Positions 32,841 through 64,000 are shown, counted from the first letter of the stretch. The stretch: DNA of 64,000 nucleotides from Spirochaetales bacterium (GCA_037142615.1 JBAXAI010000012.1:34066-98065); one strand, 5' to 3'. Notes: generated by a model not told the origin, from the sequence alone. Numbers and translations are program-made.

Positions 32841-33385
32841 GTCAAGGCGCAGCCGAAGACACCAGTACGCCCGCCAAAGGTGTTGGACGCAGGTCAAGGC
32901 GCAGCCGAAGACACCAAAGTGCCCGCCAAAGGCGCCCGACGCAGGTCAAGGCGCAGCCGAAGACACCAGTGTGCCCACAAAAGGGCCACGACGCAGGTCA
33001 AGGCGCAGCCGAAGACACCAGCATGCCCGTCAAAGGGGCCACGACGCGGGTCAAGGCGCAGCCGAAGACACCAGCATGCCCGCCAAAGGCGCCCGACGCA
33101 GGTCAAGGCGCAGCCGAAGACACCAGTACGCCCACAAAAGGGCCATGACGCGGGTCAAGGCGCAGCCGAAGACACCAGTATGCCCGTCTAAGGCGCCCGA
33201 CGCGGGTCGAGGCGCAGCCGAAGATACCAAAGTGCCCGCCAAAGGTGTTGGACGCCGGTCAAGGCGCAGCCGAAGACACCAAAGTGCCCGCCAAAGGTGT
33301 TGGACGCCGGTCAAGGCGCAGCCGAAGACACCAAAGTGCCCGCCAAAAGGGTTTGACGCGGGTCGAGGCGCAGCCGAAGACACCA
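32841..33385 (+). repeat. Tandem array of 11 ~52-bp units with a conserved hairpin core
   Basis: GTC(A/G)AGGCGCAGCCGAAGA(C/T)ACCA starts at 32841, 32893, 32945, 32997, 33050, 33102, 33154, 33206, 33258, 33310, 33362. Confidence 0.95.
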
Positions 33386-33420
33386 GTGTGCACCGAGTAG
33401 GCCCTTCCGGGGTGGTGAGT

Positions 33421-33545
33421 GCCCTAGCGCGAGTTCTCCGGTTTGGCTAAGTCGAGGGGGCGCGAGTACCGCAGCATAGCGGCAGCTATGTGAGGACACG
33501 GAGCGTCCCCGAGACGACGCCAAACCGGAGAAATCGCGCTAGGGC
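33421..33545. repeat. 125-bp imperfect palindrome (family B, copy 1)
   Basis: Arms GCCCTAGCGCGA-g-TTCTCCGGTTTGGC / GCCAAACCGGAGAA-a-TCGCGCTAGGGC. Confidence 0.85.
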
Positions 33546-42032: not shown

Positions 42033-42168
42033 ACGCCAATAGTAATTGCACCGGGGCCCGGCGTAAACAGCAAAGAAGTCGACTATTCCGTCCTAATCCC
42101 CGTCAACAACCGCCAACGCCGGTCAGGGGCAGACACGAGCGCCCGGGCCGGTGTATGTTGGCGCACCT

Positions 42169-44007
<1,839 letters not shown>

Positions 44008-44029
44008 TGGAGGGGGGCGTCCCCCCCCT

Positions 44030-44083
44030 GCGCTCCATAAAAAAGGCGGCCCTCGGGCCGCCTTTTGTTATTGCGCTACCCCC
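44030..44083 (-). repeat. Hairpin element family A, copy 1 (also a plausible typA terminator)
   Basis: Minus strand GGGGGTAGCGC-AA-TAA-C-AAAAGGCGGCCC-ga-GGGCCGCCTTTT-TTA-TGGA-GCGC. Confidence 0.8.
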
Positions 44084-44162
44084 GTGCGGGGACACCCCTC
44101 AAGGCCCGATGGTTCGCAAGACTCCGTTGCCCATGCTATAAAGATGTTCGGAGTCCGAACAC

Positions 44163-47100
44163 ATGCGAACCGTAAGAGACCTCTGTACAATTCAGCCCGG
44201 TGCCCTCGATGTCAGCGTTTCCGATCAGATCGAACGCCTCGACCAATTGATCAACGAAAAAGGCGATGGCAGGGAGTTTTTTGACAAGACATTTGTCACG
44301 GAAGGCATGAAAGCGATGCTTACCGAGGGGTTTGCGCGCCTCTCGGGGAAGTCCTCACAGGCACTGTTCCACCTGAAACAGGCGATGGGTGGGGGAAAAA
44401 CCCACCTTCTAGTCAGTTTTGGACTCTTGGCCAAGAGCGTCGATCTTCGCCGCTTGGTCACCCCCAACATCGCCTATCACGAGTCTTTCGTTCCGGCCAA
44501 GGTCGCCGCCTTCACCGGACGAAACTATCCCAACGAATACTTCTGGGGCTCTTTGGCGAGCCAACTTGGTAACCCCGCGCTCTTTTCCCGCTATTGGACC
44601 AATGGACCGGACGCCCCAGGTGAGGATGCGTGGCTCCAACTGTTTGACGGTGACCAACCCATACTCATCCTGCTTGACGAATTGCCACCCTACTTTAACT
44701 TCTACCGAACCAAAGAAGTCGGCCAGGGGACTGTTGCAGATATAGCGACCAGTGCGCTCTCCAACATGTTTTCGGCGGCTAGCAAGAAGGCGAATGTCTG
44801 TGTCGTGATCGCCGATCTTAATGCCGCTTACGAGAAAGGCGCCGCGGGGATCAACCACGCGCTCGAGGACGCGAAACAGGAGCTTGGTCGGGGGGCAAAA
44901 ACCATTACACCGGTTGACTTGGCCGGTAATGAAATCTACGCCATCCTACGCAAACGTTTGTTCGCCTCGCTGCCAAGCCAGAGTGCCATCGACGAAGTAG
45001 CTGCCGGCTATGGAAGGGCGATCGCCGAGGCCAGCCGGGCCAAGATGATCGGTCGGTCAGCCGAGGCGATCGCCGACGAAATCAGCCAAACCTACCCGTT
45101 CCATCCCAAACTCAAGAACCTCATTGCGTTGTTCAAGGAGAATGAACAGTTCCGGCAAACACGTGGCCTCATGGAATTGGTTTCCCGACTTCTGAAGAGC
45201 GTGTGGACCCGCGAACTGAACGACGTCTACTTGATTGGCCCGCAGCACTTTGATCTGTCGATCTCCGAGGTTCGCGACAAGCTTGCTGATATTTCCGACA
45301 TGGCCGACGTGATTGCCAAAGACTTGTGGGACGCCAACGGTGCCGCACATGCTCAGGTGATTGACGCTGATACCCAAAATGACGCTGCTCGCATTGCAGC
45401 GAATCTCGTGTTCACCTCGAGCCTTTCGACCGCGCACAACGCGGTTCGCGGCCTGACTTCCGAGGAAATTCTGGAATGTGCCATTAGTCCGTTTCAAGAT
45501 GCTGCCAGCATCACTACGGCATTGGAGCAACTCAACTTGCAGGCATGGTACTTGCACCACTCGGGCGAAGGGAAGTACTTCTTCGACAGGGTCGAGAACC
45601 TGACCAAGCTATTGCAGGACCTCGCGGAGAAGGCACCAAGACCTCAGGTCGACCAGGTGATTCAGAAGAGACTATCCGATCTCTTTCAGCCGACCCGCAA
45701 AGTTGCGTACGAAGAAATGATCGCGCTCCCGACTCTCTCGGAGGTGGAAGACACTATCCGAAAAAAGCGAGTCCTACTCATTCTACCCCCTGAGGGTAAG
45801 ATCCCTTCCGACGGACTTGAGAAGTTCTTCCAGTCGATTCAGTCCAAAAACAACTTGTTGGTGCTGACCGGGGAAAAGAGCGTGATGGACAACCTTGAGG
45901 CCAAAGCAAGGTACGTGTTCGCATCCATCAAAGCTGAATCCAGAATCCCCAAGGGACACGCTCAGCGTGAAGAACTCGAGCGGAAGCAAGAACAGTACTC
46001 TGCTGACCTTCTGACCGCGACCCTCAACACGTTCGATAAGGTAGTGTTCCCCACCCAACGTTCGGGTCAACAGGCTCGCCTTGTCTCCAAGCCGCTTTCT
46101 CAAAGCTATAACCAGAGCAAACCTTACAATGGTGAACAGCAGATAGAGGCCACGTTGGCGGCGGACCCTCTGAAGTTGTATGTCGATGTTGCCCAAGATT
46201 TTGAGGCGATTCGCGACAAAGCGCAGGATTTACTGTGGCCGCAAGGGAGCGACGATACGAGGTGGACGGACGCTCGAGAGCGGGCAACTCAGGAACCGGC
46301 CATGCCCTGGCTACCGTCCGTAGGTTCCGCAGGTCTCGAACTCGTGAAACAACTGGCTCTCAGCCATGGCAAGTGGGAAGATCTGGGGAACGGATACGTC
46401 ACCAAGAAACCCCGCCCCAAGAAGGCGTCGTTGCAGATTTCGCAGGAGTCGGAGCCCGACGACGAAGGCCGAGTCCGCTTGAGGCTGGTACCTCAGAACG
46501 CAGGCAATCAACCCAAAATCTACGTTCAGGAAGAAGGGTCGGTCTCACCTTCCAGCCCAGTTCATCTAGATACACTGTTTTCAACCAAAGCCTTGTGGGC
46601 CGAGTTTCTTGTTGTAGACCCTTCGGGCCAAGCCCTGCCCGGTGAGCCAATACGGTGGGACAACGAGCTGGTGATTCGTCATCGGGTAAGCGGTCAAGGA
46701 GCCCACCGAAGCGTGGAGTTGTACCTGTCGCCGCGCGGAAAACTTTGGTACAGCCTCGATGGTACAGAACCTCGAAACGGTGCCTCCTATGATGGCTCCT
46801 TCGAAGTCGCAGAAACGGGAGGCCGGCTGCTTGTCTATGGCAAAGCCGACGCCCTTGAAAAAAAGGCTGACTTCACGATTCCGGCAGTTCAGCAAAACGA
46901 AGTCACCTTCGACGAGAGTCGGCCCGCAAGTCTAGTTCGGCCTTCACCGTTTCGCCTTGACTCGCGACAGAAGACATTCGAGCTCTTGGAGCTAGCTGCA
47001 ACCCAACAAGTGGTGTTTTCCAAACTCTCGCTGGCCGTCGGCCAAATGGCTTCTGCGATTTCGGTGACAATCCCACAGAAAGAAGTTAGCGCCGAGTATC

Positions 47101-47255
47101 TTCTGAAGATTGTGAAGGCCATTAGCGACGACCTGCCAGCCAGCGAACCTATCACTTTAGGGTTTTGCCGCGCCCAGTTTCGCCTTGGCAAAGAGCTCAA
47201 GGAGTTCACCGACCGAGCTGGCTTCAATCCGCAGGCAGGAGACATTGTTCAGTGA
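44163..47255 (+). CDS. DUF499 ATPase of a restriction-like (Gao RL-type) defence system
   Basis: QAMGGGKTH, ILLDELPPY, YPFHP, FRQTRG; position in the operon; TGcTATAAA at 44134. Confidence 0.88.
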   Translation: MRTVRDLCTIQPGALDVSVSDQIERLDQLINEKGDGREFFDKTFVTEGMKAMLTEGFARLSGKSSQALFHLKQAMGGGKTHLLVSFGLLAKSVDLRRLVTPNIAYHESFVPAKVAAFTGRNYPNEYFWGSLASQLGNPALFSRYWTNGPDAPGEDAWLQLFDGDQPILILLDELPPYFNFYRTKEVGQGTVADIATSALSNMFSAASKKANVCVVIADLNAAYEKGAAGINHALEDAKQELGRGAKTITPVDLAGNEIYAILRKRLFASLPSQSAIDEVAAGYGRAIAEASRAKMIGRSAEAIADEISQTYPFHPKLKNLIALFKENEQFRQTRGLMELVSRLLKSVWTRELNDVYLIGPQHFDLSISEVRDKLADISDMADVIAKDLWDANGAAHAQVIDADTQNDAARIAANLVFTSSLSTAHNAVRGLTSEEILECAISPFQDAASITTALEQLNLQAWYLHHSGEGKYFFDRVENLTKLLQDLAEKAPRPQVDQVIQKRLSDLFQPTRKVAYEEMIALPTLSEVEDTIRKKRVLLILPPEGKIPSDGLEKFFQSIQSKNNLLVLTGEKSVMDNLEAKARYVFASIKAESRIPKGHAQREELERKQEQYSADLLTATLNTFDKVVFPTQRSGQQARLVSKPLSQSYNQSKPYNGEQQIEATLAADPLKLYVDVAQDFEAIRDKAQDLLWPQGSDDTRWTDARERATQEPAMPWLPSVGSAGLELVKQLALSHGKWEDLGNGYVTKKPRPKKASLQISQESEPDDEGRVRLRLVPQNAGNQPKIYVQEEGSVSPSSPVHLDTLFSTKALWAEFLVVDPSGQALPGEPIRWDNELVIRHRVSGQGAHRSVELYLSPRGKLWYSLDGTEPRNGASYDGSFEVAETGGRLLVYGKADALEKKADFTIPAVQQNEVTFDESRPASLVRPSPFRLDSRQKTFELLELAATQQVVFSKLSLAVGQMASAISVTIPQKEVSAEYLLKIVKAISDDLPASEPITLGFCRAQFRLGKELKEFTDRAGFNPQAGDIVQ

Positions 47256-47839
47256 ACAATCTGCCCCAGTTTGAAGACTTTGGTGCACCCACTAGGGTGG
47301 GCTCTCACATCTTCTTGGTCGATATTCCCATCAGTCGTTCAGAGCCGGTTCTCATTCTGGAAAACTATGGCTTCCTTGGCGGTGAACGGGGTATTCCCGA
47401 GAAGGAAACCCGCGTCAGTCTGAATCGCAGCCATTGGTACGGTATTTCGGAGATCGCCCGACAAGACTTCAACGATCGGCTCAAGGGCAAGAAGATGACG
47501 ACGAGCCGATGGACGACCGGCCTGAACAAACTCGACAAGCTATTGGGCAAAGAACTCTGCGTGCTAGCCTGGGCAGCAGAGCAGTCGTCGTTGGAACAGC
47601 TGCCCATCGTTTGCCACAGGTGGGTGTCGCTCCGACCAGAGGAACGCTGGTGGTTGTTTCGCATGACTGTCGCCGAGGCAGGGCTGGCGCAAGACCTCGA
47701 CCGAGGCTGGCGAAAGGCCCTCCACTTTGCTCTTTCTGATGGTAAGATTGACGAGCGGCGCATCAAGCGCCCCCGACCCGATGACGACGACGAGGATTTG
47801 TCGTTGTTCGGTGGTTCCGTGCAGGAGGTTCACCAGTGA
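47252..47839 (+). CDS. DUF3780 protein
   Basis: LGKELCVLAWA, LRPEERWWL, GWRKAL; coupled to DUF499 by GTGA. Confidence 0.85.
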   Translation: MNNLPQFEDFGAPTRVGSHIFLVDIPISRSEPVLILENYGFLGGERGIPEKETRVSLNRSHWYGISEIARQDFNDRLKGKKMTTSRWTTGLNKLDKLLGKELCVLAWAAEQSSLEQLPIVCHRWVSLRPEERWWLFRMTVAEAGLAQDLDRGWRKALHFALSDGKIDERRIKRPRPDDDDEDLSLFGGSVQEVHQ

Positions 47840-48882
47840 TTAGCCACCTCAGCGTTGAAAACTTTGCGGCACTGGAGCAGGCCGAGCTCGACTTTTCCCC
47901 GGGGCTGAATGTCATCCTGGGCGAGAACAGCACCGGCAAAAGTTTGCTGATGAAATTGATGTATTCCGGCGCTTGGGTCAGCCACTCCTTGGGGAAAGGC
48001 GACCGCAAAACCAAAGATGAGCTGCAGCGAGCCATAGCTGACAAGCTGAAGGCAGTGTGCATTCCTGAATCTCTTGGGAGACTCGTTACCCGGAAGGCGG
48101 GCCGAAATCGGTGCACGGTTCGGGTATCGTTCAGCGAACCCCAGAATGCCTCATTCGGGTTCTCATTCGCCACAAATAGCGATCGTGAAGCCAAACTCGA
48201 CGGCGCCACCCCCGAAGGCTACCTGAGCTCATCGCCTATTTTCATTCCAACAAAAGAAGTTCTTTCGGTGTTCCCCAATTTTGCAGCGACACTTCGCTCC
48301 AAGCACCTCTTCTTTGACGATACATACCTTGATTTGCTCGACGCACTCGACCAGCCAGTCAACAAAGGGGCCCCCAAGAAGGACGAAAGAGAACTCCGGG
48401 ATTCACTGGAGCAGGCAATGGCGGGTCGCGTTGTGTTCGACGGAGGCCGCTTCTACTACCTGCCCGAAGCAGAGGGCAAAGGGAAGATTGAAATGCCGTT
48501 GGTTGCCGAAGGCCTACGGAAGATTTCGATCTTGACCTACCTAGTGATGAACGGTGGCCTGCGCAATAAGTCTCTCTTATTCTGGGACGAACCTGAGGTT
48601 AACTTGAACCCCAAACTGATGCGCAGACTTGCCGTCGTGTTGGTCGACATGGCCGAGCGCGGGGTTCAAGTGATCCTTGCCACTCATAGTCTGTTCTTGC
48701 TCCGCGAGTTGGTCATTGCTCGCGCCAGTAGCAAGACGAAAGAACCCGTGCGTTTCTTTGCCCTTTCGAAGCAAGGAGACACGCAGAGGGTGACGCAAGG
48801 TGACTCGGTCGAAGAGGTCGACCCGTTGGCCAGTCTCGATGCGGAACTGGAACAGAGCGATCGGTACCTGGAGCTTCCTTGA
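47836..48882 (+). CDS. ABC-type (AAA_15/AAA_21-like) ATPase
   Basis: LGENSTGKS, AEGLRK, FWDEPEVNLNP, LATHS. Confidence 0.88.
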   Translation: MISHLSVENFAALEQAELDFSPGLNVILGENSTGKSLLMKLMYSGAWVSHSLGKGDRKTKDELQRAIADKLKAVCIPESLGRLVTRKAGRNRCTVRVSFSEPQNASFGFSFATNSDREAKLDGATPEGYLSSSPIFIPTKEVLSVFPNFAATLRSKHLFFDDTYLDLLDALDQPVNKGAPKKDERELRDSLEQAMAGRVVFDGGRFYYLPEAEGKGKIEMPLVAEGLRKISILTYLVMNGGLRNKSLLFWDEPEVNLNPKLMRRLAVVLVDMAERGVQVILATHSLFLLRELVIARASSKTKEPVRFFALSKQGDTQRVTQGDSVEEVDPLASLDAELEQSDRYLELP

Positions 48883-49421
48883 TGCAAGTCTTCGACGAGC
48901 AGGGAATTGCGTTTGCCTTTCCTGACGACTTTGTCGTTTTTCGCCCTCAACACTCCGTTTTTTACAGAAAGTTGTGGCAGCGGTTTTCGATCCCCGACGC
49001 GGCGGGCGAGAAAGGAAACAAAGAAGCTGACTTCGTTGCCGTCGACCGAAAGGAGCAACGCCTTTGGCTCATCGAGGCCAAGGACTATCGTGTCCACGAA
49101 CGCACCAAGCCCGGGTCACTGTCGCAGGAGTTTGCCCGCAAATGCCGCGATTCGCTGGCATTGTTGGCCGCGTTGCAGCTCAGTAGCACCGCAGCCGAGG
49201 TTGGCGAAACAGCGAGCGGGCTGTTGGATGGTCTCAAGAAGGTTTCTTGCGTCTTGCACGTCGAGCAGAAGGCAGGTGAAAAACTTTTCCCGCTGGCGGT
49301 CAGACCCACTGACCTGAAAGACGCACTGCGTCGCGAACTACATGCCCTTGACCCCCAGGCGCTCACGGGTACGGCTGCGGAGCTCGCAACACTTCAACTT
49401 CCCTTCACCATCACCGTCTAG
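48879..49421 (+). CDS. Putative PD-(D/E)XK-fold nuclease partner of the ATPase
   Basis: EADFVAVD...LWLIEAKDY; coupled to the ATPase gene. Confidence 0.62.
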   Translation: MMQVFDEQGIAFAFPDDFVVFRPQHSVFYRKLWQRFSIPDAAGEKGNKEADFVAVDRKEQRLWLIEAKDYRVHERTKPGSLSQEFARKCRDSLALLAALQLSSTAAEVGETASGLLDGLKKVSCVLHVEQKAGEKLFPLAVRPTDLKDALRRELHALDPQALTGTAAELATLQLPFTITV

Positions 49422-49429
49422 GAGCCCCC

Positions 49430-52264
49430 ATGCCAGTAGTTCCCTTTTCCCTCAAAGAAGCACCGGCGTTGATCGAAACGCTGTTCCCGGCCCAGAAGTT
49501 GTCGATCGAAGCGTACAAGGAACAGATGGCGGGCAGCGGCAAGACCTTGACCGCTTTGGGAAGCTACTGGAAGGGCCGCAAGCCGCTCATCTTGAACCGT
49601 GCCTGTGTCTTGGGCTGCCTGCTGCCGGTGACTGCCAACCCCATCCGGGACCTCGAGATTTTCGAGAAGCTAATGGCCATGGACGAAACCGCGCTAACTC
49701 ACCGTCTCAAGGCCAAGAACGACAAGAAGAGTCGCTCTCTTATTTCCAGCTATCAACATAAGGTCGATGCCGCCTGTCGCCCCGAGGAGTGCGACAACAC
49801 TTTGTACGACGGGATTTGGCCCGAGGTAAACGCTCACTTGGGCACCGAAGCGACGAGCTTTCCCGAGTTGGTGGAACAGCTGGGAATCATGCGCTTTGGC
49901 CACCGTCCCCGGTTTGCCGACGTGTTTTCGGGCAGCGGGCAGATTCCCTTCGAGGCCGCCCGGCTGGGCTGCGACGTGTACGCCAGCGACCTGAACCCCG
50001 TGGCCTGCATGCTTACTTGGGGCTCGTTTCATTTGGTGGGTGCCCAGCCCGAGGAGCGGCAAGAGATTGCAGTGGCGCAGGCACGGTTGGTGCAGAAGGT
50101 GCAGTCCGAAGTCGATGCCTTGGGCATCGAGAACGACGGCAAGGGATGGCGGGCTAAGGCCTTTCTGTATTGCGTCGAGGTAAGGTGCCCCCAGACAGGC
50201 TGGATGGTGCCGCTGATTCCCAGTTTGATTGTCAGCCAGCCACGTACGGGCGAGGTGCGCAACAACGTGGTGGTTCAGCTGGTTCCCCTGCCCGCCGAAA
50301 AGCGCTACCGCATTGATGTGGTTTCGTTCGCCACTGAAGCCCAACTGGCTCAAGCCGAACTCGGCACCGTACAGGGCGGCGAGATGGTGCATTCGCCCGA
50401 CGGTACCAAGGTGTACCGCACCAAGATCAGCACCTTGCGGGGGGATTACGCCGAGGGCGGCGAAACCAAGAACAGGCTGCGAATGTGGGAAAAGCATGAC
50501 TTTGTAGCTCGGCCCCACGACCTATACCAAGAGCGACTGTACTGTGTGCAGTGGCTTCGCACCAAAGCCGCTGGCCGGGGGCAGGAGTACGAGTTCCGGT
50601 CGGTGACTCCCGACGACCTGACGCGCGAGAAAACAGTGATCGACTTTGTGGGATCACGGCTGGCCGAATGGCAGGCCAAGGGTTGGGTCCCCGACATGGT
50701 GATCGAGGCCGGGGCCAAGACCGACGAGCCGATTCGCACCCGGGGCTGGACTCACTGGCACCACCTGTTCAACCCGAGGCAGTTGCTGGTGGCGGGGTTG
50801 GTGCGGCAAAACATCAACTCCACCACGGCGTTCGGACTGTCGCAGGTGATCAACTGGAACAGCCGGTTGTGTCGATGGAATATGGGCAGCGGTGGCGGTG
50901 GCAGTATCCAGGACGTATTCTACAATCAGGCTCTCAATACTCTTTTCAACTACGGTTGTCGTAACACAGCTCTGGCCCTTACCCAGGTCGACCTCGGTGC
51001 CAGGAGCTTTCCTTTCGCCAAAGGAGTGAAGGCTGAAGTGAAGACTCACGCGGCCAACGCCATCACCGCGCCCACCGATCTGTTCATCACCGACCCGCCG
51101 TACGGCGACGCCGTCAAGTACGAAGAAATCCTCGAGTTCTTCATCGCCTGGCTGCGCAAGAACCCGCCTGCCGAGTTCAAAGGTTGGGTGTGGGACAGCC
51201 GCCGGGTGATGGCCATCAAGGGTGAAGACGACAAGTTCCGGCAGGCCATGATCGACGCGTATTCGGCCATTACGCGTTGTATGCCCGACAACGGTATGCA
51301 GGTCATCATGTTCACCCACCAGTCGGGCAGCATTTGGGCCGACATGGCGCACATCGTGTGGGCGGCGGGGCTGCAGGTCACGGCGGCGTAGTACGTGGTC
51401 ACCGAAACCGACAGCGCCTTGCGCGGCAGCAACAACGTCAAAGGAACAGTGCTTCTGGTACTCCGCAAACGACAGGGTGAACACAAAAGCAGCCGCAGCG
51501 ACTTGGGGTGGGAACTGCAAGAAGAAGTCGACCGGCAAGTGCAGACTCTGACCGGTCTGAACCAGAGCGCGAAGACTCTGTACCGAGACGAAAACTTGTT
51601 CAGCGACGCCGACCTACAGATGGCGGGCTACGCGGCGGCGCTGCGAGTGCTTACCCGGTACACATTCATCGACGGCAAAGACATGCGTATCGAGGCCGGG
51701 CGCCCCAAACAGAAGGGCAAGAAGGACTTTGTCGAGCAGCTGATCGACTTTGCCGTCGAGACCGCCAACGGGGCTTTGGTCCCCTTGGGGCTGGAACGTT
51801 CCGTGTGGGAAAAGCTTACCCCCGGCGAGCGGTTCTACCTCAAGATGATCGACCTCGAGTCGCAAGGGGCCAAGTCGCTCGACAACTACCAAAACTTCGC
51901 CAAAGCGTTCAAGGTGCCTGACTACCGGCTGTACCTGGCCGAAGACCGGGCCAACCATGCCCGCCTTAAGTCAGGCGCCGATTTTGGACGCAGCGAAATG
52001 TCCGACTCTTCCGAACTGGCGGGCACCCGGCTCCGGGGCTTGCTGTATGGCTTGATGGAACTGGGCCAAGGCGTCGAGTCCGACGATGTGCTGGGTCACC
52101 TGAGTCTGAACGTGAAGAACTACTTCAACTGCCGTTTGGAACTTGTCGAAATCGCCGACTTCTTGGCCGCCAAGCTGGAGCACCTGGACGCCGACCAGGC
52201 CAGCCACGCACGCGTGCTGCGCGACCTGGTACGCCACCAGAAACTCGGCGCCTGGGAAAACTGA
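49430..52264 (+). pseudogene. DUF1156 amino-methyltransferase interrupted by an in-frame TAG
   Basis: FSGSGQIP and TDPPY motifs; TAG at 51389-51391 in VTAA*YVVTETD; same frame continues to 52264. Confidence 0.85.
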
Positions 52265-55014: not shown

Positions 55015-55037
55015 GGGCTCCGGGCAGCGCCCGGCGA

Positions 55038-55100
55038 GGGGGTAGCGGAAGACCCCGCAGGCGCAGCCGAGGAGGCTGAAGCGAGGGGGAGACTTCCCCC
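55038..55100 (+). repeat. Hairpin element family A, diverged copy
   Basis: GGGGGTAGCGGAAGA-[inner hairpin with GGC-GCA-GCC]-TGAAGCGAGGGGG then a G/C hairpin. Confidence 0.55.
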
Positions 55101-55123
55101 CTTGGTCCAGTCGACCTACCAAG

Positions 55124-55248
55124 CTCCTCGGCCGAGATCGGGGCTTTGGCTAAGCCGAGGGAGAAGCGAGGACCGCAGGCGTACTGGAAGTACGTCGAGG
55201 ACCGGAGCCGCCCTAGGCGACGCCAAAGACCCGAGATCGGCCGAGGAG
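55124..55248. repeat. 125-bp imperfect palindrome (family B, copy 2)
   Basis: Arms CTCCTCGGCCGA..TCGGGGCTTTGGC / GCCAAAGACCCGA..TCGGCCGAGGAG. Confidence 0.85.
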
Positions 55249-55249
55249 G

Positions 55250-55886
55250 GCACGAGCCCATCGAGCACCGCCACATCGACTGCGAAGAAAGCTACACCGG
55301 CATCGTCACCGAAAAGCTGAGCATGCGCAAATGCCGCATGACCAACATGGTCAACCACGGCAGCGGTCGCGTGCGCCTGGAGTTTTCGGCCCCCAGCCGC
55401 TCGCTCATCGGTTACCGCGACGAGTTCCTCACCGATACCAAAGGCACCGGCCTGATGAACAGCTACCTCGCCGGCTACGAACCCTACCGCGGCGAAATCC
55501 CGAGCCGTAACAACGGCTCTTTGGTGTGCGACCGCCAGGGCGAAGCCGTGGCCTACGGCATTTTCCACCTCGAACCCCGCGGCCGCATTTTCGTGGTGCC
55601 CGGCGACAAGGTGTACGAAGGCATGATCGTCGGCGAACACAACCGCGACCTCGACCTCGACATCAACGTGTGCAAGGAAAAGAAACTCAGCAACATGCGC
55701 TCCGCCGGCAAAGACGACAACATTTTGCTCACGCCCGTGAAGCCCATGACGCTAGAGGCCAGCCTGAACTTTTTGCGCGACGACGAGTGGCTGGAAGTGA
55801 CCCCGAAGAATTTGCGGTTGCGGAAGCAATACCTGGGGATTGCGGATCGGAAGCAACACAGTAAGAAACTCAACGACGGGGTGTAG
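55250..55886 (+). pseudogene. typA: 5'-truncated second copy of typA (3' 637 bp)
   Basis: Gap-free direct repeat of 43371-44007 at offset 11879; differences are mostly synonymous. Confidence 0.95.
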
Positions 55887-55952
55887 CTAGGACCGGAGAG
55901 TTTTTGGCGAAGCCAGAAACTCTGGGGCTAAGGTACCGTAGGTGCCGTGCCC

Positions 55953-56005
55953 GCGCTCCATAAAAACAGCCCCGTCAACGGGGCTGTTTGTTATTGCGCT
56001 ACCCC
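55953..56005 (-). repeat. Hairpin element family A, copy 2
   Basis: Minus strand GGGGTAGCGC-AA-TAA-C-AAACAGCCCCG-ttga-CGGGGCTGTTT-TTA-TGGA-GCGC. Confidence 0.8.
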
Positions 56006-56084
56006 GGCGCAGACTTCGCTAGCGCCTGCCGGGCGTCGCCCGGAGCCCGGATCGCGTGCTATAACACTCCTGTGAGACCGATTC

Positions 56085-58616
56085 ATGGCGAATGAAGCCG
56101 CTGCCCGCCTCAAGATCAATCACTTGCTCACCACCGCCGGCTGGAGGCTCCTCGACGAAGGCGACCTGCGCGCCAACGTGCATGTCGAGGCCAAGAGCGA
56201 CGCAGGGTTTGCAGACTACCTGCTGTTCGACTCGCAAGGCTTCCCGCTCGCGGTCATCGAGGCCAAGGCGCCTGCCAAGAACCCGTTGGTGGGCAAGGAA
56301 CAGGCGCGCGGCTATGCCAAAGATCACCATGTGCGGTTTGTGTTCTTGTGCAATGGTGAGGAATCGTATTTGTGGGACGTGGCGACCGGCGATCCCGAGC
56401 CGCTGACCCACTGGCCCAGCCCTGAAGCGCTTGAGGCCAAGGCTCGAGTGCAAGCAACCGGAAAGTCGGCCTTCGTCGATCCGTATCGGGCCCGGGGACT
56501 CCTGGCGTCCGAAGCCGTGGCCGACGACTACATTGCCCGTACCCAGGACAGCCACTACGACGAGCACGCCAGTTGGAAGAACTCCGCGTTGCGGCCCGGG
56601 TACATCGCAGAGCTCAAACTCAGGTTTCTTAGGCCGTACCAAGTCGAGGCCCTCGCCGCCATCCAAGCCGCAGTGGGTCAGGGCCGAAGCCGGTTCCTAC
56701 TCGAAATGGCCACTGGCACCGGCAAGACTCTCACCAGCGCTGCCCTCATCAAGCTGTTCTTGCGCACCGGGGCCGCACATCGCGTGCTGTTCCTGGTGGA
56801 TCGGCTGGAGTTGGAAGACCAGGCGCAGAAGGCTTTCGTCGCTCAATTGGCCCGCGACTACCGAAGTGTCATCTACAAGCAGCACCGAGGTGACTGGCGA
56901 CAGGCACATATCGTCGTCACAACCGTGCAGTCGCTGATGGCTTCGGACCGGTACAAGGAAGAGTTCAGCCCTAGTGACTTCGGGTTGGTGATCAGCGACG
57001 AGGCGCACCGGTCGATCTCGGGGCAGGCCCGCGACGTGTTCGAATACTTCCGGGGGTACAAGTTGGGGCTCACCGCGACCCCACGCGACTTGCTTCGTGG
57101 TATTTGGGCCAAAGAGACCGGCATCAGCGAGTTCGAGCTCGAGAAGCGCGTGCTGTTCGATACCTACCGTGTCTTCGGCTGCGAGTCGGGGGTGCCCACC
57201 TACCGCTTTGGGCTGCTCGATGGCGTCAAGGGCGGCTACCTGGTCAACCCCACCGTGCTTGATTGCCGCACCGACAAGACCACGCAATTGCTGTCGGAGC
57301 AGGGCTTGGCTTTTGAGGCCAAGGATGAGGACGGCAATGATGTCGCCGAGACCTTCGGCAAACGCGACTTCGAGCGCACGTACTTCAGCCCCGAGACCAA
57401 CCAGTCGTTCGTGGCCACGTTCTTGGACCACGCGCTCACCGACCCCATCACCCACGAGCTGGGCAAGAGCCTGATCTTCTGCGTCAGCCAGAGTCACGCG
57501 GCCAAGATCACCAACCTGCTCAACCAGGAAGCCAGCCGCCGTTGGCCGGGGCGCTACCAGTCCGACTTTGCCCTGCAAGTGACCAGCAGCGTGGCCGACG
57601 CCCAAGCCATGACCGTGCGCTTCAGTGAGAACACGCTCGGTGGCAAGACCAAGATGGTGAACGACTACACGTCGAGCCGGGTGCGTATCTGCGTTACGGT
57701 GGGAATGATGACCACCGGCTACGACTGCGCCGACCTGCTCAACGTGGTGCTGATGCGGCCCGTTTTCAGCCCGTCAGAGTTCATCCAAATGAAGGGGCGG
57801 GGAACCCGGCTGCATACCTATGAGTGGACCGAACCCAAGACCCGCCAGCGCTTTGCGCACAAGAAAACCGGCTTCCATCTGTTCGACTTTTTCGCCAACT
57901 ACGAGTTTTTCGAGGCGGAGTACGACTACGACGCCGTCAAACCGGTGCCGCTCAGCCGCGCCGAGCTGGGGGTGCACGACGACAAGTTCGAGGTACCCAA
58001 GCCGCTGGGTTCGGTGATCGACGACAGCCCCGATGCGCTCAAGGCCACCAACTGGATCACCATCGGTGTCGACGGCATGAAGATCGACCGCCTGTTCTGG
58101 CAGGACTTCAGCACGCAAGTGACCGACGACGCCGACATTGCGGATGCGGCCGCCCGCGACGACTGGGACCGCGTAAGCAGCTACATCCACGAGCGTTTGC
58201 TCGGCGGCGAGGGCGGTGCGAGTCCCATTGCCGAAACCGACACCAGCGACCGAGGGCGCAGTCTCGACGTGATCCGCACCCTTTTGGCTCGCCGCGATGG
58301 TCCGGCCCTTGAGGCCCTATTCGCCAAGCTGTTTGGTCGCTCCATCCAGCTGCCCACCAAGCAGGACCTGCTCACCCAGGCCTTCGAGCGGTTTGCCCGC
58401 ATGCATCCGCCCCGGCCCGAAGCCCTCGACGACGTGAGGTTCTTCTTTTTCAGCTACGTGGGCGAGCCTCGCATCCGGGCGCTCATCGATGAGGGCCGTC
58501 TGGCCGAGCTCAACAGTACCGCGCTGACCCCCGACCGCCTCAAGCGCGTGCCTGACTGGCGGGGAATCGTGAAAGCTCTGCAGACCGAGGTGGATTGGGA
58601 TAGGTTCGGAGCGTGA
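56085..58616 (+). CDS. hsdR: Type I restriction enzyme R subunit
   Basis: ADYLL..VIEAK, RPYQ, MATGTGKT, DEAHRS, TAT, MTTGYD, QMKGRGTR; TGcTATAAC at 56057. Confidence 0.9.
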   Translation: MANEAAARLKINHLLTTAGWRLLDEGDLRANVHVEAKSDAGFADYLLFDSQGFPLAVIEAKAPAKNPLVGKEQARGYAKDHHVRFVFLCNGEESYLWDVATGDPEPLTHWPSPEALEAKARVQATGKSAFVDPYRARGLLASEAVADDYIARTQDSHYDEHASWKNSALRPGYIAELKLRFLRPYQVEALAAIQAAVGQGRSRFLLEMATGTGKTLTSAALIKLFLRTGAAHRVLFLVDRLELEDQAQKAFVAQLARDYRSVIYKQHRGDWRQAHIVVTTVQSLMASDRYKEEFSPSDFGLVISDEAHRSISGQARDVFEYFRGYKLGLTATPRDLLRGIWAKETGISEFELEKRVLFDTYRVFGCESGVPTYRFGLLDGVKGGYLVNPTVLDCRTDKTTQLLSEQGLAFEAKDEDGNDVAETFGKRDFERTYFSPETNQSFVATFLDHALTDPITHELGKSLIFCVSQSHAAKITNLLNQEASRRWPGRYQSDFALQVTSSVADAQAMTVRFSENTLGGKTKMVNDYTSSRVRICVTVGMMTTGYDCADLLNVVLMRPVFSPSEFIQMKGRGTRLHTYEWTEPKTRQRFAHKKTGFHLFDFFANYEFFEAEYDYDAVKPVPLSRAELGVHDDKFEVPKPLGSVIDDSPDALKATNWITIGVDGMKIDRLFWQDFSTQVTDDADIADAAARDDWDRVSSYIHERLLGGEGGASPIAETDTSDRGRSLDVIRTLLARRDGPALEALFAKLFGRSIQLPTKQDLLTQAFERFARMHPPRPEALDDVRFFFFSYVGEPRIRALIDEGRLAELNSTALTPDRLKRVPDWRGIVKALQTEVDWDRFGA

Positions 58617-58624
58617 CGACCGTC

Positions 58625-58719
58625 TTGACTTACATGTCACGTGGGATTAGTCTGAATCTATCTTCCCCGTAGGCATTGCGTTCTGCGGGCCCCCAGGGTT
58701 TAGCTCTGGGTTTTTTTTT
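58625..58719 (+). ncRNA. Promoter plus ~60-nt two-hairpin leader RNA ending in a terminator, upstream of the NYN gene
   Basis: TTGACT-17-TAGTCT; hairpin 58666-58689; hairpin 58692-58710 followed by T9. Confidence 0.62.
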
Positions 58720-58733
58720 GCCCGAAGGATGCC

Positions 58734-59342
58734 ATGAAACGAGTCGCCGCGTTTGTCGATGGGTTCAATCTCTACCATGCCCTTGAAAATCTGGATTCTC
58801 CGAAGGTGAAGTGGCTCGACCTTCAGGGCCTTGTCCGCTCGGTACTGAAATCAGATGAAAAGCTGGTCTCAACGTTGTATTTCACGGCGTACGCGACTTG
58901 GGATGACGAAAAGGCAGCGCGGCATAAGAAGTACATTCGAGCCCTTGAACTGACGGGTGTACAAGTGATACTCGGCAAGTTCAAACGAAGGAATCGCACC
59001 TGTCGCGAGTGTGGTGCCCGAGCCGTCGACCACGAGGAAAAACGGACCGATGTCAACATTGCGACCCACCTGCTTCGAGGTGCCTTTCTGAACGAGTTCG
59101 ACCTCGCCATTGTCGTCTCCGGTGACACCGACCTGATTCCTGCCATCGACGCGGTGAAAGAACTGTTCCCAGCCAAGCGAGTGGGCATCTTGTTCCCTAT
59201 GAACCGCCATACCACCGAGATGGAGCAGAGCGCCGACTTCAGCGAGTCCGTGAAGCTGCCAGCGCTCCTGGCCAACCGTCTGCCCGACCAGATCCGCCTT
59301 CCGAGCGGAAAGTACCTTACGCCGCCCACCGAGTGGCAATAG
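58734..59342 (+). CDS. NYN/LabA (PIN-like) domain RNase
   Basis: FVDGFNLYH, EEKRTDVNIA, VSGDTDLIPA. Confidence 0.9.
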   Translation: MKRVAAFVDGFNLYHALENLDSPKVKWLDLQGLVRSVLKSDEKLVSTLYFTAYATWDDEKAARHKKYIRALELTGVQVILGKFKRRNRTCRECGARAVDHEEKRTDVNIATHLLRGAFLNEFDLAIVVSGDTDLIPAIDAVKELFPAKRVGILFPMNRHTTEMEQSADFSESVKLPALLANRLPDQIRLPSGKYLTPPTEWQ

Positions 59343-59352
59343 CGAGTCTTCC

Positions 59353-61821
59353 ATGCTCAACGCCGACACGAAACGACGCATCAACGCCTGCCGCGACATT
59401 CTGGTGGGCAAGGTGACCGACCCCAAGGCGCAGGTGGAGCAGATCACCATCGCGCTGATGTACAAGTTCATGAACGACATGGACCACGAGGTGCGCGACC
59501 TGGGCGGGGCGTCGTCGTTCTTCGCCGGCGAGTTTGCCACCTACAGCTGGGACCGCATCACCGACCCGCGGCTGGGCGGCGAGGAGCGCCTGCGCCTGTA
59601 CGCCGAGGGCATCGAGGCCGTGGTGAAAAACCCGGGCGTGCCCGAGCTGTTCCGCCAGATCTTCCGCAACGCGTACTTGCCCTACCGCGACCCTGAGACG
59701 TTCAACCTGTTCAGCCAGGAGATTTCGGGCTTTCGGTACGAGCACAGCGAAGACCTGGGCGACGCCTTTGAGTACCTACTCAGCGTGATGCAGAGCCAGG
59801 GCGACGCCGGCCAGTTCCGCACCCCGCGCCACATCATCGACTTCATGGTCGAGGTGGTGAAGCCCCAGCCCGGCGAGGCCATCCTCGACCCGGCCTGCGG
59901 CACGGCCGGGTTCCTCATCAGCGCGTACAAGCACATCGTGAAGCATCACCAACTGACCCCCGCACAGACCGAAGACCTGCACCGCAACGTGGAAGGCTAC
60001 GACATCAGCCCCGACATGGTTCGCCTAAGCCGTGTGAACCTGTACCTGCACCAGTTCGCCGACCCCCGCGTGGTGGAATACGACACCCTGACCAGCGAGG
60101 ACCGCTGGGGCCGCCGCTTCGACGTCATTCTGGCCAACCCGCCGTTCATGACGCCCAAGGGAGGCATCCGCCCGCACCGCAAGTTCAGCCTGGAGTCGAA
60201 CCGCAGCGAGGTGCTGTTTGTCGACTACATTGCCGAGCATCTGATGGCCGGGGGGCGGGCCGCCGTCATCGTGCCCGAAGGCATCATCTTCCAGTCGGGC
60301 AAGGCCTACCAACAGCTGCGCCGCATGCTGGTCGAAAGCAGCCTGTGGGCCGTGGTCAGCCTGCCCGCCGGAGTGTTCAACCCGTACAGCGGCGTCAAGA
60401 CGAGCATTCTGTTCCTGGACCGGGGAATCGCCGAAAAGGGAGCCCCGGTGCTGTTTGCCCAGGTGAAGGCCGACGGCTACGACCTGGGTGCCCAACGCCG
60501 CGCCGTGGCCGCCAACGACCTGCCCGCCGCGCTGGCCTTGCTGAACGACGCCCACACCCGCCTGAGCCGGGGAGAGGTTCCCGCCGACTTTCGCGACAGC
60601 CTGACTGACCACGCCCTGACTCACCTGTTTGTGCCCCGCGCCGTGCTGGCCGAAGGCGATGCCAACCTGAGCGGCGAACGCTACCGAGTCGCCGCCGCCA
60701 CCGGACCGAAGAAGTGGCCGATGGTGAAGCTGGGGGAGGTGTGTGACCTGCTTTCCGGACAACACATCGATACCGAGAAGTACAACTCGGAGGGTGTCGG
60801 TACTCCCTACCTTACTGGACCTGCGGACTTCGGGCCGACATACCCTCTCGTCTCGAAGTGGACCACCGAACCGAAAGTTCTGGCGAATGCGGGAGATATC
60901 CTAATCACGGTAAAGGGTTCTGGGGTTGGGAAGGTGAACCGGCTGAATCTCGATGCCACCTGCATAAGCCGACAGCTGATGGCAATTCGCCCACGGGAGA
61001 TCGAGGTTGGATTTCTATATGCACTGCTCCAGACGAAGTTCGAACATTTCCAGCTTGAGGGCGAGGGTGCTGCGATTCCGGGCCTTACTCGAGATGATGT
61101 GCTGTCACTCGAAATCCCTCTCCCCCCGCTCTCGGTGCAGCAGCAGATCGTGGCCGAAGTGGCCCGGTACCAGGCCGTGATCGACGGGGCACGACAGGTA
61201 GTGGACCACTGGAAGCCGAGCTTCGCCGTGGAACCCGAGTGGCCGGTGGTGAAGTTGGGGGAGGTGGCCATTAGGATCACCAAGGGCACCACGCCCACGA
61301 CTATGGGCTTCAAGTACCATGAATCCGGTGTTGCATTCGTGAAGATCGAAGCTCTATCCGAAACTGGGGAAATCGACAGGAAGAAGCTCTCGTTCGTCGG
61401 GACAGATTGCCACGAGGCATTTTCCAGGAGTCAACTTGCCACCGGCGATGTTCTTTTTTCCATCGCCGGGACAGAAATGGGTATCACCGCGATTGTCACC
61501 GAGGAGATTATTCCCGCCAATACGAATCAGGCCTTGGCTATCATCCGACTTGGGACCTTGTGTATGCCTCGTTACGCCTTGAACTTCCTTCGTTCACCGC
61601 GCCTAAAGTCCCAAATCGAAGGTCTGAAAACAGGTGTGGCCCAATTCAACCTATCACTTGCCCAGGTTTCAGAGTTGGAAATTCCCCTCCCTCCCCTCGA
61701 AGTCCAGCAACAAATCGTGCAACGCATCGAGGCCGAGCGCGAGCTGGTAGAAGCCAACAAGCGGCTGATCGAGCTGATGAAGGCCCGGATCGACGAGACC
61801 ATGGCGAGGGTGTGGGGATGA
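59353..61821 (+). CDS. hsdM: Fused type I methyltransferase-specificity subunit (HsdM-HsdS)
   Basis: [21 protein letters not shown]; two TRDs bounded by WPxVKLGEV and EIPLPPL. Confidence 0.9.
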
Positions 61822-62573
61822 TCGTCGACAACCGCGACGCGGTGGACCTCAGAGAGCTCCTTGAGGAGTACGGCGATCCCCATGACCTGGAAATCCTTCT
61901 GAAGAACGCCGGGGTCCAGCTTCCGTTCGGCGTCGGCACCTCGAAGCTTGGACTTGCGAACTATTTCCTTGAACGCCTGAACCGGGGAACGGTCGATGTC
62001 TTCCTGCTAGAATTCCTGTACCTCTGTGAGCAACGAGCGGGAGCTCGCATCGCGCGGACAGACTGGGATGTTCGTGACCATCATCGACAATTGCTTGACC
62101 TTTGCATCGCCCTCAGCACGAGGCTGACGGACGGCATGGCGCCGCGTGAACTTCACTCAGCCGAACGAAAACCCTTTACGGCTCGGTCTACGCTCCGTGA
62201 GCTGATCTCGACTGCCGAGACCGAGGTGTTTCTCGTCGACAACTACGTCGATCTAGCCACGCTGGACATTTTTCGCGAGTGTCACCATCCAATCAAACTA
62301 TTGACGGGACCAACCCCTAGAAACATACCCGAGAGTCTACGTGGCTCGATGAAGAGTTTCCGAGATGAGGGATTTCGTATTGAAGTCCGGACTTGTTCTG
62401 ACCTTCATGACCGGATTCTGTTTTTCAACGAAAAGGCCTGGCTATTGGGCTCCAGCATCAAGCACGCAGGGGTGAAGCAGCTCAACATGATCCAATTTGA
62501 GGCTCCCGAGATCGTCGAAAGTGTCATGAAAGAGGCCACCGAGAAATGGAACCTCGCGCAGGTTTGGGAATAG
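61818..62573 (+). CDS. Hypothetical protein with C-terminal PLD-like domain
   Basis: LVDNY, LHDRILF....WLLGSSIK; ATG overlaps the upstream stop. Confidence 0.65.
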   Translation: MIVDNRDAVDLRELLEEYGDPHDLEILLKNAGVQLPFGVGTSKLGLANYFLERLNRGTVDVFLLEFLYLCEQRAGARIARTDWDVRDHHRQLLDLCIALSTRLTDGMAPRELHSAERKPFTARSTLRELISTAETEVFLVDNYVDLATLDIFRECHHPIKLLTGPTPRNIPESLRGSMKSFRDEGFRIEVRTCSDLHDRILFFNEKAWLLGSSIKHAGVKQLNMIQFEAPEIVESVMKEATEKWNLAQVWE

Positions 62574-62736
62574 TGAGGGTTCTAGGCGCGCAAGCCGAAG
62601 GCGTCGCAGAGCCCGGTCATCATTTTGGAAAAGTGGGGCGTGATGGGAGAAGAGTCCGTGGGAGCGGGGTAGTCCACGTGGCAGAGGCAGCCTGCGCAGG
62701 CTTGACTTCGACGCAATTTCGGACGATATATTTGGC

Positions 62737-62949
62737 ATGAGTGACTTCCTGTTCGCCCGTCCTTCCGTACTGGAAGGCATCGGGAGAAACCTCGACCTGT
62801 TTGGCACGATGCAGATGTACAACGCTTCTGATACACCCGAACAGGCTGACACTTTGGCCTTCTTCGCCGACCTTGCTGCGCTCAAATCCGACGCTGCGGC
62901 GGCATATGCAGCACTGGTCAAGAACTATGAGTCGTCGCGGAAAGAGTAG
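62737..62949 (+). CDS. Small hypothetical protein (70 aa)
   Basis: TTGACT and an AT-rich -10-like sequence just upstream; overlaps the next gene. Confidence 0.55.
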   Translation: MSDFLFARPSVLEGIGRNLDLFGTMQMYNASDTPEQADTLAFFADLAALKSDAAAAYAALVKNYESSRKE

Positions 62950-63394
62950 TGGTCAGCTTTCCCACACCGCGGGAAACTCTCCAGATCAGCACACCATGCA
63001 GAAGGTCCCTGCGGGGCAGTTAGCTTTTGCCGCATCACAAAATGTGCGGATCAGCCCGTTTCCTCCGCCGGCAGAAATGCAGGTCTACGAGCATTTGGCA
63101 CCTGGGTTCACGGCCGAGTTCCTCGGAACCTACAAGAGTCAGGTGGAACATCGACAAAAGCTGGAGACTCTCGCGATCACGGGAGACAATACTCGAGCAA
63201 ATCGTGCTCAGATCTTGTCATTCATCTTGGCAATTGTTTTCGGAATATTGGGGTTCTCGCTCATTTTGTTGGGTCGGGACGTTATCGGCTACGCTACATT
63301 GCTGGGCGCAATCGGCTCACTTCTACTCGCGTTCTTTGGGGGAACGTTCATGCGCTACCTTGAGCGAAGAGGAAAGGCTCGCCAGTCTCAGTAG
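62927..63394 (+). CDS. DUF2335-like two-TM membrane protein
   Basis: PFPPPAEMQVYE..PG...QVEHRQKLE followed by two TM helices; start uncertain. Confidence 0.72.
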   Translation: MSRRGKSSGQLSHTAGNSPDQHTMQKVPAGQLAFAASQNVRISPFPPPAEMQVYEHLAPGFTAEFLGTYKSQVEHRQKLETLAITGDNTRANRAQILSFILAIVFGILGFSLILLGRDVIGYATLLGAIGSLLLAFFGGTFMRYLERRGKARQSQ

Positions 63395-63637
63395 CGGCTA
63401 CTCGGCTTGGATTTCCGAAAAAAACCGATTACCCCTGCACGCTTCACCGGGGCATAAAAAAAGTCCCATCGGAGGCTAGGTGATGTTGCCATCACACAAG
63501 GCACGTGGCCTACGTTCACCGTCCCGGGACTTGTCTTTCAGTATGACACCACGGTGCCATTGGTCAATCACCCATTCTGGATCCGGGGGTCTTAGGGGGG
63601 CGTAAGCGCGAAAGCGCGTCGCCACGCCCCCTAGGCC

Positions 63638-63692
63638 GGGGGTAGCGCAAGAACAACCAGACCGTCGGGCTGGTTTTCTGGAGCGCAGGGGG
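63638..63692 (+). repeat. Hairpin element family A, copy 3
   Basis: GGGGGTAGCGC-AA-GAA-C-AACCAG..CTGGTT-TTC-TGGA-GCGCAGGGGG. Confidence 0.8.
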
Positions 63693-63718: not shown

Positions 63719-63773
63719 GTTACCACATTGGTAACTCAATAATATTGACTCAAGCGGTAACTCATCCTATCCT
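63719..63773 (+). promoter_or_regulatory. higB promoter and putative antitoxin operator
   Basis: GTTACCA-cat-TGGTAAC palindrome; TTGACT (63745), 17 nt, TATCCT (63768); GGTAACTCA occurs twice. Confidence 0.7.
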
Positions 63774-63781
63774 GAACTTGG

Positions 63782-64000
63782 ATGAGGATAATCTCCCGAA
63801 AAGCCCCCAAAGACTTTTATGAGACACTCATCCCGATGCCGAACAGCCCCTGTTGGCGTGGTACCGTGAAGCGAAGGATGCCGACTGGAACAACCCAGCC
63901 GACATCAAGGCCAAGTTTGGGTCGGCGAGCGTACTCAAGGACAAGATTGTGATTTTCAACATTGGTGGCAACAAGTACCGCTTGGTGGTGCGAGTTTTCT
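63782..64000 (+). pseudogene. higB: Frameshifted HigB toxin (runs off the window edge)
   Basis: MRIISRK..DFYE in one frame; HPDAEQPLLAWY..ADW..PADIK..FNIGGNKYRLVV in another; extra AC at 63824-63827. Confidence 0.82.

Follow-up and report, generated by a model that had tools for sequence, protein, structure and literature searches.

The window analysed here, a stretch of 64,000 nucleotides (nt) from a Spirochaetales bacterium (GCA_037142615.1 JBAXAI010000012.1:34066-98065), holds a full-length typA (bipA) gene followed by two cassettes of defence genes, with a fragment of the same housekeeping gene, typA', between them and with copies of a GC-rich hairpin element (W1 to W4) at the cassette borders (Table 1). 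The large open reading frames (ORFs) between 42 and 64 kb all lie on the plus strand, and along the window the four copies run in the order minus, plus, minus, plus, each cassette having a minus copy on its left and a plus copy on its right. This arrangement had been described in an earlier note on the same DNA, made from the sequence alone, in which the element was taken for a recombination or HUH-nuclease site that brackets each cassette.

Table 1 Positions of genes, hairpin elements and other repeats. Window positions are counted from the first letter of the stretch; the last three rows refer to the related locus L005 in another genome.
Feature	Position	Strand	Description
Tandem array	32841-33391		52-nt unit x 10.6, 86% matches; just upstream of Y
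Y	33421-33545		Homologue of X in the core part of the window
typA/bipA, full-length	42151..44007	+	TIGR01394 TypA_BipA, 882.5 bits; Pfam GTP_EFTU, EFG_C, BipA_C
W1	44008..44083	-	Short form immediately behind typA; core 44030-44083; G-run hairpin of the tail 44012-44028; T-runs on both strands
Cassette 1	44163..55014	+	Hma-like: DUF499 ATPase, DUF3780, DUF1156 methyltransferase, PLD-helicase (PADLOC and Pfam)
HEC-02 A/B pair	47836-49421		ATPase and small protein, embedded in the Hma-like system of cassette 1
Small hairpin module	55015..55035	+	5' side of the W4 head; inverted partner of 56028-56048
W4	55039-55101	+	Decayed long-form member (accepted); head GGGGTAGCGG, tail TGAAGCGA, hairpin GGGGGAGACTTCCCCCC
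X	55124..55248	.	125-nt long hairpin, second repeat family; inverted repeat I1; -45.4 kcal/mol, z -5.89
typA'	55250..55886	+	Promoterless typA 3' fragment; Pfam EFG_C and BipA_C only
W2	55953-56005	-	After typA'; frames as in W1, apical stem different, no G-run tail
Small hairpin module	56028..56048	-	5' side of the W2 head; inverted partner of 55015-55035
Cassette 2	56085..63394	+	Type I R, NYN (HEC-09), fused M-S, PDC-S05-like ORF, DUF2335 (PADLOC and Pfam)
NYN-domain HEC-09 gene	58734-59342		Type I system of cassette 2, between R and fused M-S
W3	63627..63692	+	After cassette 2; core 63638-63686; C-run/G-run hairpin at the head
L005 LC	1717-1868	+	Long form; stands alone
L005 LA	10001-10048	-	63.6 bits; with G-run tail
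L005 LB	11065-11166	+	Long form

Copies of the element and their common frame

When the whole window was searched with a covariance model and for the exact head of the element, W1 to W4 were the sole copies of the family found. The cores of the short forms read GGGGGTAGCGCAATAAC-AAAAGGCGGCC-CGAG-GGCCGCCTTTT-TTATGGAGCGC in W1 (44030-44083, minus strand), GGGGTAGCGCAATAAC-AAACAGCCCCG-TTGA-CGGGGCTGTTT-TTATGGAGCGC in W2 (55953-56005, minus strand) and GGGGGTAGCGCAAGAAC-AACCAGACC-GTC-GGGCTGGTT-TTCTGGAGCGC in W3 (63638-63686, plus strand), in agreement with the copies and the shared frame reported in the earlier note. The 15-mer GGGTAGCGCAANAAC is found exactly only at 44067-44081 (minus), 55990-56004 (minus) and 63640-63654 (plus); at up to three mismatches it has 19 matches (5.87 expected), a number reached by none of 100 shuffles. 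The 9-mer head GGGGTAGCG has four exact occurrences, every one at W1 to W4. Matches to a looser head and tail pattern were rejected as noise (17, compared with 27.5 in shuffles), the real copies being those with the exact head.

The covariance model, which had been proposed as a check on the family, was built from W1 to W3 and one copy from outside the window and run with filters off. Only W1, W2 and W3 scored strongly (80.9, 76.6 and 70.2 bits, all three being training sequences), and the best unrelated match in the window reached 12 bits; of five loci from a pattern scan of other genomes, it scored one, L005, as a true member (63.6 bits). The diverged copy that had been suspected at 55038-55100, here W4, scored 16.8 bits (E = 0.13); its tail TGAAGCGA is followed by GGGGGAGACTTCCCCCCTT, and its tail hairpin is identical at 19 of 19 nt to that of LB, one of the L005 members. 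Because it has the exact head and this tail identity, we accepted W4, on its sequence, as a decayed long-form member despite the low score. No Rfam family reached its gathering score anywhere in the window; scans by E-value of 54990-56100 and 43980-44180 gave only weak matches, driven by the terminator stem, the best at 27 bits against a gathering score of 111. A blastn search of a plasmid collection with W1 returned short generic hairpin matches only, none spanning 80% of the query. Among the literature matches to the motif that were listed, all were of primer type.

From head to tail, the unit consists of GGGG-GTAG-CGC-AA (head), a 4-bp basal helix, the AA/TGGA internal loop, a self-paired core of 24 to ~110 nt that is free to vary, and TGGA-GCG (tail); a G-run/C-run hairpin usually stands 3' of the tail. 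Short forms measure 48-54 nt and long forms ~63 to 150 nt. The hairpin after the tail is present in W1, W4 and all three L005 copies, and weakly in W3, in which a C-run/G-run hairpin also precedes the head; the element is thus longer than was proposed earlier. The GTAG of the head lies directly at the foot of the hairpin, and of the 7 members, four in the window and three in L005, each has an exact GGGGTAGCG and is intergenic.

Folded as single-stranded DNA, the element consists of the GCGC base, the AA-TGGA internal loop, 3 bp, a C bulge and the variable apical stem. W1 folds at -28.9 kcal/mol (z = -3.69) and W2 with z = -4.68; for W3, z is only -1.88, and 10 of 200 shuffles fold equally well. 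In an alignment of four sequences, 95.3% of the cells in paired positions can pair, compared with 81% in shuffles and 37-57% with slid partners, the structure having been derived from the same four. Both sides change in 7 of the 18 pairs, including T-A/G-C at the TAA/TTA position, and none of 500 shuffles reached the covariation score, again with four sequences. The claim that the inner stem-loop differs between copies while its TAA/TTA pairing covaries is borne out by these changes. The AA/TGGA loop is retained in 5 of the 7 members (W1, W2, W3, LA and LB), whereas the bulged C of W1 to W3 is paired with G in LA (GAAC/GTTC); of the two irregularities supposed to be kept, the loop is conserved and the bulge is not.

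Duplication of the typA 3' end and content of the island

The 3' end of typA is present twice: by blastn, 43371-44005 and 55250-55884 are 94.66% identical over 637 nt, and the homology ends exactly at the stop codon, TGA in typA and TAG in typA'. Of the 211 codons compared, 26 differ synonymously and 3 non-synonymously; judged by codon changes of this kind, the excess of synonymous over non-synonymous differences shows that each end belonged to a working gene while the two diverged in separate lineages. Identity is complete over the last ~200 nt (43806-44005 and 55685-55884), and the preceding ~435 nt differ at ~8% of positions, suggestive of a later gene-conversion tract or of a shared recombination arm ending at the stop codon. 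Both minus copies of the element are in effect an element after typA, W1 standing behind typA and W2 behind typA'. The other junction, 55249/55250, at which typA' is truncated, lies 1 nt past the end of the hairpin X. Because the typA 3' end is duplicated, this arrangement points to the addition of cassette 1 through homologous or homology-facilitated recombination in typA, which probably left typA' as a scar.

A duplication of the integrase att type was rejected, the repeat being 637 nt long and diverged (94.7%) rather than a short exact core. An integrase-mediated island at the 3' end of a tRNA or other gene was likewise ruled out, there being no integrase, no tRNA gene and no short exact att repeats; ARAGORN found no tRNA gene in the window. 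The idea that GCGCTCCA, which resembles an acceptor end with CCA, is a tRNA fragment was dropped on the same ARAGORN result and because no T-arm motif was seen. When the typA 3' end was used as a query against the plasmid collection, it matched typA at 65-72% identity in unrelated taxa, and among titles and abstracts we found no literature naming typA as a hotspot anchor; PMC10121019 gave no passage on homologous recombination.

With respect to mobility genes, Pfam, PADLOC and other profile scans gave no integrase, Y1/HUH, Y1_Tnp or transposase match in either cassette, and the 64-kb window contains no tyrosine recombinase or integron integrase gene. The linkage of the hairpins to tyrosine recombinase or RAYT/TnpA genes (RAYT, REP-associated tyrosine transposase; REP, repetitive extragenic palindromic) that had been envisaged is therefore absent over these 64 kb. 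The only mobility-type gene in the window encodes an Rpn-family PD-(D/E)XK protein (25512-26423; TIGR01784, PF12784; 'recombination-promoting nuclease/putative transposase'), for which no link to the hairpin elements was found.

An extended -10-like box, TGCTATAA, is located at 44134-44142 and 56057-56065, ~20-30 nt upstream of the first start of each cassette. Each box sits just inside the element, in the interval that separates W1 (cassette 1) or W2 (cassette 2) from the first gene of the cassette, and by this box each cassette may be a self-contained transcription unit. In cassette 1, the DUF1156 methyltransferase gene is split by an in-frame TAG (51389-51391) into ORFs 49430-51391 and 51395-52264, and the positions of the PADLOC model run on across the TAG (1-651, then 654-944); the gene could be a pseudogene, the TAG could be read through, or the sequence could be in error. 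Downstream of W3, a promoter-like site (63745-63773) is followed by a higB-like toxin gene (63782-64000). Pfam HigB_toxin matches 63853-63999 (E = 8.5e-19), and a typical N-terminus, MRIISRK..., is encoded in another frame from 63782, so that the gene, as read here, may be frameshifted. Because this gene follows W3, the variable region runs past the end of the window.

The elements are mixed with other repeats. X and its homologue Y share a conserved inner part (TTTGGCTAAGYCGAGGG...GACGCCAAA), whereas their outer arms differ yet still pair, both being palindromic; X matches nothing in the plasmid collection and no Rfam family at its gathering score. The core of W4 and the 52-nt tandem array upstream of Y share the 14-mer GGCGCAGCCGARGA, with 12 matches in the window and 0 expected. 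The period of this array is not divisible by 3, the ORF of 227 aa around it is probably spurious, and its unit folds no better than shuffles. The small hairpin modules next to the heads of W4 and W2 form inverted repeat I12 (21 nt, 90% complementary), and the sequences upstream of W2 and W4 are 83.8% similar over 37 nt. On sequence grounds, this mosaic of repeats is native to the genome of the window.

Relatives in other genomes and likeness to known repeats

To the window copies we can add relatives from a scan of one genome per species (185,579 species) with the 21-base two-frame pattern GGTAGCGCAANAACN{15,40}TGGAGCGC; the collection did not contain the genome of the window, whose three copies were not among the matches. 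Five loci matched, compared with ~7 chance matches expected by our own arithmetic. Four of the five have no hairpin, their stems being unpaired and their covariance model scores lying between 14.8 and 24.3 bits. L005, from a metagenome-assembled genome (MAG) of the Spirochaetia, is the one true match.

The L005 locus has three members inside 20 kb, in the order plus, minus, plus, among housekeeping genes. LC lies between TauE and lnt, at convergent gene ends; LA between an oxidoreductase and a HAD hydrolase gene, at divergent gene starts; and LB between the HAD hydrolase gene and PPDK, which are in tandem. A T-run is absent at all three. Besides these neighbours there are proC, an isocitrate/isopropylmalate dehydrogenase-family gene and an M16 peptidase gene, as well as RadA-like, 2-hydroxyacid dehydrogenase and class II (D/K/N) aminoacyl-tRNA synthetase genes. 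The HAD gene enclosed by LA (minus) and LB (plus) is like its neighbours in GC content and in GC content at third codon positions, and no Y1_Tnp match was found among the ORFs scanned in these 20 kb. All three members share a GGGCGTCGCGGG-like motif ~45-60 nt 5' of the head (near 1650, 10105 and 11005), and because this motif is common to all three, the repeated unit in L005 exceeds the element from head to tail. Copy density is 3 per 20 kb in L005 and 4 per 64 kb in the window, where all four are within 20 kb.

Passages in PMC3733652 describe the GTAG REPs as having an unpaired GTAG tag, covarying stems and variable self-complementary 'loops' of up to 27 bp, and as forming inverted HH and TT dimers (TT having GTAG inside), with DNA inserted between dimer partners. 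According to PMC8266576, TnpA-REP acts on folded single strands and requires GTAG, and in E. coli also a conserved AA-GC mismatch in the stem. The present elements resemble such REPs and the bacterial interspersed mosaic elements (BIMEs), among them E. coli REP y/z, Pseudomonas GTAG-1 and Stenotrophomonas SMAG, in having GTAG at one end of an imperfect palindrome and in conserving a stem irregularity, here AA opposite TGGA and, in E. coli, AA-GC. They also share the covarying stems, variable self-paired apices, intergenic sites and inverted 'TT' partners, and, with REP clusters and BIMEs, the mosaic association with other short motifs and a possible terminator activity. They differ in being longer (48-54 nt in the short forms and up to ~150 nt), in an apical stem that is wholly different between copies, in the extra G-run hairpin tail, in the distance between partners (1-11 kb here and 1-100 bp there) and in the absence of a RAYT gene from the 84 kb scanned in window and L005. 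REPINs, too, comprise two inverted REP-type units as one and are thought to be mobilised by a single-copy enzyme encoded elsewhere; REPIN partners, however, are short-spaced and fold into one hairpin, whereas the partners found here enclose whole genes.

Integron attC sites also come to mind, since they too flank promoterless or self-contained cassettes and fold as single strands, with basal boxes that are conserved, an internal loop and a terminal structure that varies. An attC identity was rejected: there is no IntI, attI or Pc, the orientation alternates minus, plus, minus, plus where attC sites all point one way, and the bulged C is not conserved. The attC R-box consensus is matched by the elements only as far as AAC/GTT. 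Of the two comparisons offered in the earlier note, the one with HUH-nuclease sites of REP type therefore stays plausible by virtue of the GTAG architecture, and the one with attC fails on orientation, integrase and bulge.

Mobile insertion cassettes (MICs) and cargo bracketed by miniature inverted-repeat transposable elements (MITEs) have inverted terminal repeats around passenger genes and no internal transposase. The inverted pairs seen here were detected as inverted repeats I4, I10 and I15, but they differ from such cargo in their unequal ends (W2 has no G-run tail), in that no second copy of any unit is known and in that no target-site duplication was seen; when the flanks were read by eye, there was no target-site duplication or direct repeat at the outer ends of the three pairs. 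The locus is also like defence hotspots flanked by core genes, with systems stacked after a housekeeping gene, no mobile-element genes and a duplicated core-gene scar, and is unlike them in that its second junction falls where the long hairpin repeat X ends.

Origin of the locus and rival explanations

The best reading of W1 to W4, as far as sequence allows, is as a lineage-restricted family of mosaic, modular, GC-rich intergenic palindromic repeats of the GTAG-tagged REP/BIME kind. With slightly better than even confidence, we favour a joint reading in which the elements are such a family, the window's short forms double as transcription terminators, and recombination in typA built the island. 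As in REPs, a protein would recognise the conserved frame on single-stranded DNA (or RNA) in its folded form, and the family may be spread and maintained in trans by an enzyme of the RAYT/HUH type. The short forms would be bidirectional intrinsic terminators closing each transcription unit, because A- and T-runs flank the GC stem on both sides; they would be more than terminators, as had been maintained earlier, because in L005 the same frame is found at sites that are not terminators, including divergent gene starts, and without T-runs. The position downstream of typA may be a hotspot for variable defence genes. Incoming DNA from a diverged relative would have brought a typA 3' end, W1, cassette 1, W4 and X, and would have been joined within typA, either as a circle integrating in the Campbell manner or through illegitimate recombination facilitated by homology, with the second junction at the end of X and with the resident typA 3' end (typA') and W2 left ahead of cassette 2. 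The bracket of minus copies on the left and plus copies on the right would then consist of repeats filling the intergenic gaps at unit borders, in an inverted 'TT dimer' arrangement with GTAG inside. The defence genes seem to have come by ordinary typA recombination rather than through the hairpins, and the earlier proposal that the hairpins are the recombination sites of the cassettes was not upheld: both minus copies follow a copy of the duplicated typA 3' end, and the cassettes contain no recombinase.

Several observations weigh against the joint reading. In the window, the four copies are confined to the 20 kb of the island; the 44-kb core part has none, and ~6-7 would be expected there at the density of L005. 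By our arithmetic, random placement would produce such clustering with a probability of ~(20/64)^3 to (20/64)^4, that is, 0.03 to 0.01. The outcome that the earlier note had named as refuting its proposal, copies scattered after core genes, is accordingly not seen in the window, but it is seen in L005, the only related genome available, with its three copies among core genes in 20 kb. All three inverted pairs (W1/W4, W2/W3 and LA/LB) have their GTAG heads facing the enclosed genes. REPs are put at 20-40 bp and the elements measure 48-150 nt; the 64 + 20 kb of window and L005 showed no RAYT gene, and the exact short form is present in just 1 of 185,579 species genomes. A consensus terminator scan of the window (19 sites found, 23.0 expected) omits W1 to W3, we think due to A-T pairs that lengthen the stem into the T-run; by eye, W1 to W3 have a GC-rich stem and a T-run on both strands, after gene ends, and W4, LA, LB and LC have no T-run. 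Finally, W1 and W2 are identical at 33 of 33 frame bases, whereas their apical stems and the stretches beside the typA stop are unalignable; because this is so although the synonymous sites of typA are well diverged, W1 and W2 are not simply orthologous terminators.

Part of this evidence would be expected if the inverted pairs were the ends of cargo units lacking a transposase, whether MIC-like, stretched REPIN-like or attC-like, and moved by an enzyme encoded elsewhere, an explanation that we regard as unlikely. A unit of the form tail-head, genes, head-tail would be excised and inserted, with the position directly behind the typA stop codon as its preferred target. All three pairs are indeed heads-in, enclosing 11 kb, 7.6 kb and 1 kb; the variable DNA starts exactly past the typA stop codon, element included; W1 and W2 are different family members at the same position; every window copy is in the island; the frame is conserved across genomes, as expected of a protein-recognition site; and a promoter-like box is found just inside the element in each cassette. 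However, neither the cassettes nor the DNA next to them contain a recombinase or transposase gene, the outer ends showed no target-site duplication, and the typA' scar implies that at least the last acquisition used typA homology. The ends of cassette 2 are moreover unequal, W2 being without the G-run tail, the L005 pair encloses an ordinary HAD gene, native in composition, LC is solitary, and the pairs number three, two of them sharing a history. A bolder version, quite improbable in our estimate, holds that heads-in GTAG pairs mark gene cassettes of 1-11 kb that can be moved in trans, as cargo-stretched REPIN-like doublets that include whole defence systems; the hypervariable apical stem would be a cassette-specific label, and the site just past the typA stop would be a preferred landing site.

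The elements could, conversely, be plain bidirectional intrinsic terminators, alike by descent of the typA terminator and gene conversion, which also appears unlikely. W1 to W3 each have a GC-rich stem with A-runs before and T-runs after it, just past a gene end, and W1 and W2 arise with the typA duplication. On this explanation, however, it is hard to place the L005 members, which have no T-run and one of which lies between divergent gene starts, or the inversion of W3 relative to W1 and W2 where the genes run one way; termination does not require the conserved parts (head with GTAG, AA/TGGA loop, GCGC base and G-run tail), the terminator stem is the part that varies, and the terminator scan left W1 to W3 unflagged. 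A role as cis-acting host sites in RNA or DNA, such as a stabiliser of mRNA 3' ends, a site for a nucleoid protein or gyrase, or a small RNA, with no mobility of their own, seems very doubtful. Such roles are assigned to REPs in PMC3733652, and the frame conserved around a variable stem and the location between genes would suit them, but no Rfam family matches at its gathering score, both orientations relative to transcription occur, and the core ranges from 24 to ~110 nt.

If the joint reading of a REP/BIME-like family and typA recombination is true, the elements would constitute a new REP/BIME-like family from a poorly sampled lineage, with a relative in a Spirochaetia MAG and of unusual build, its GTAG frame being strictly kept around a freely changing core. 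The locus would illustrate clearly how recombination in a housekeeping gene can stack defence systems into a hotspot, the scar of the event being preserved. Such a result would be useful for annotation and for drawing island borders, and would not be surprising. If, instead, the heads-in pairs are the ends of cassettes mobilised in trans, they would represent a mechanism for moving defence systems without mobility genes, and the finding would carry far greater weight.

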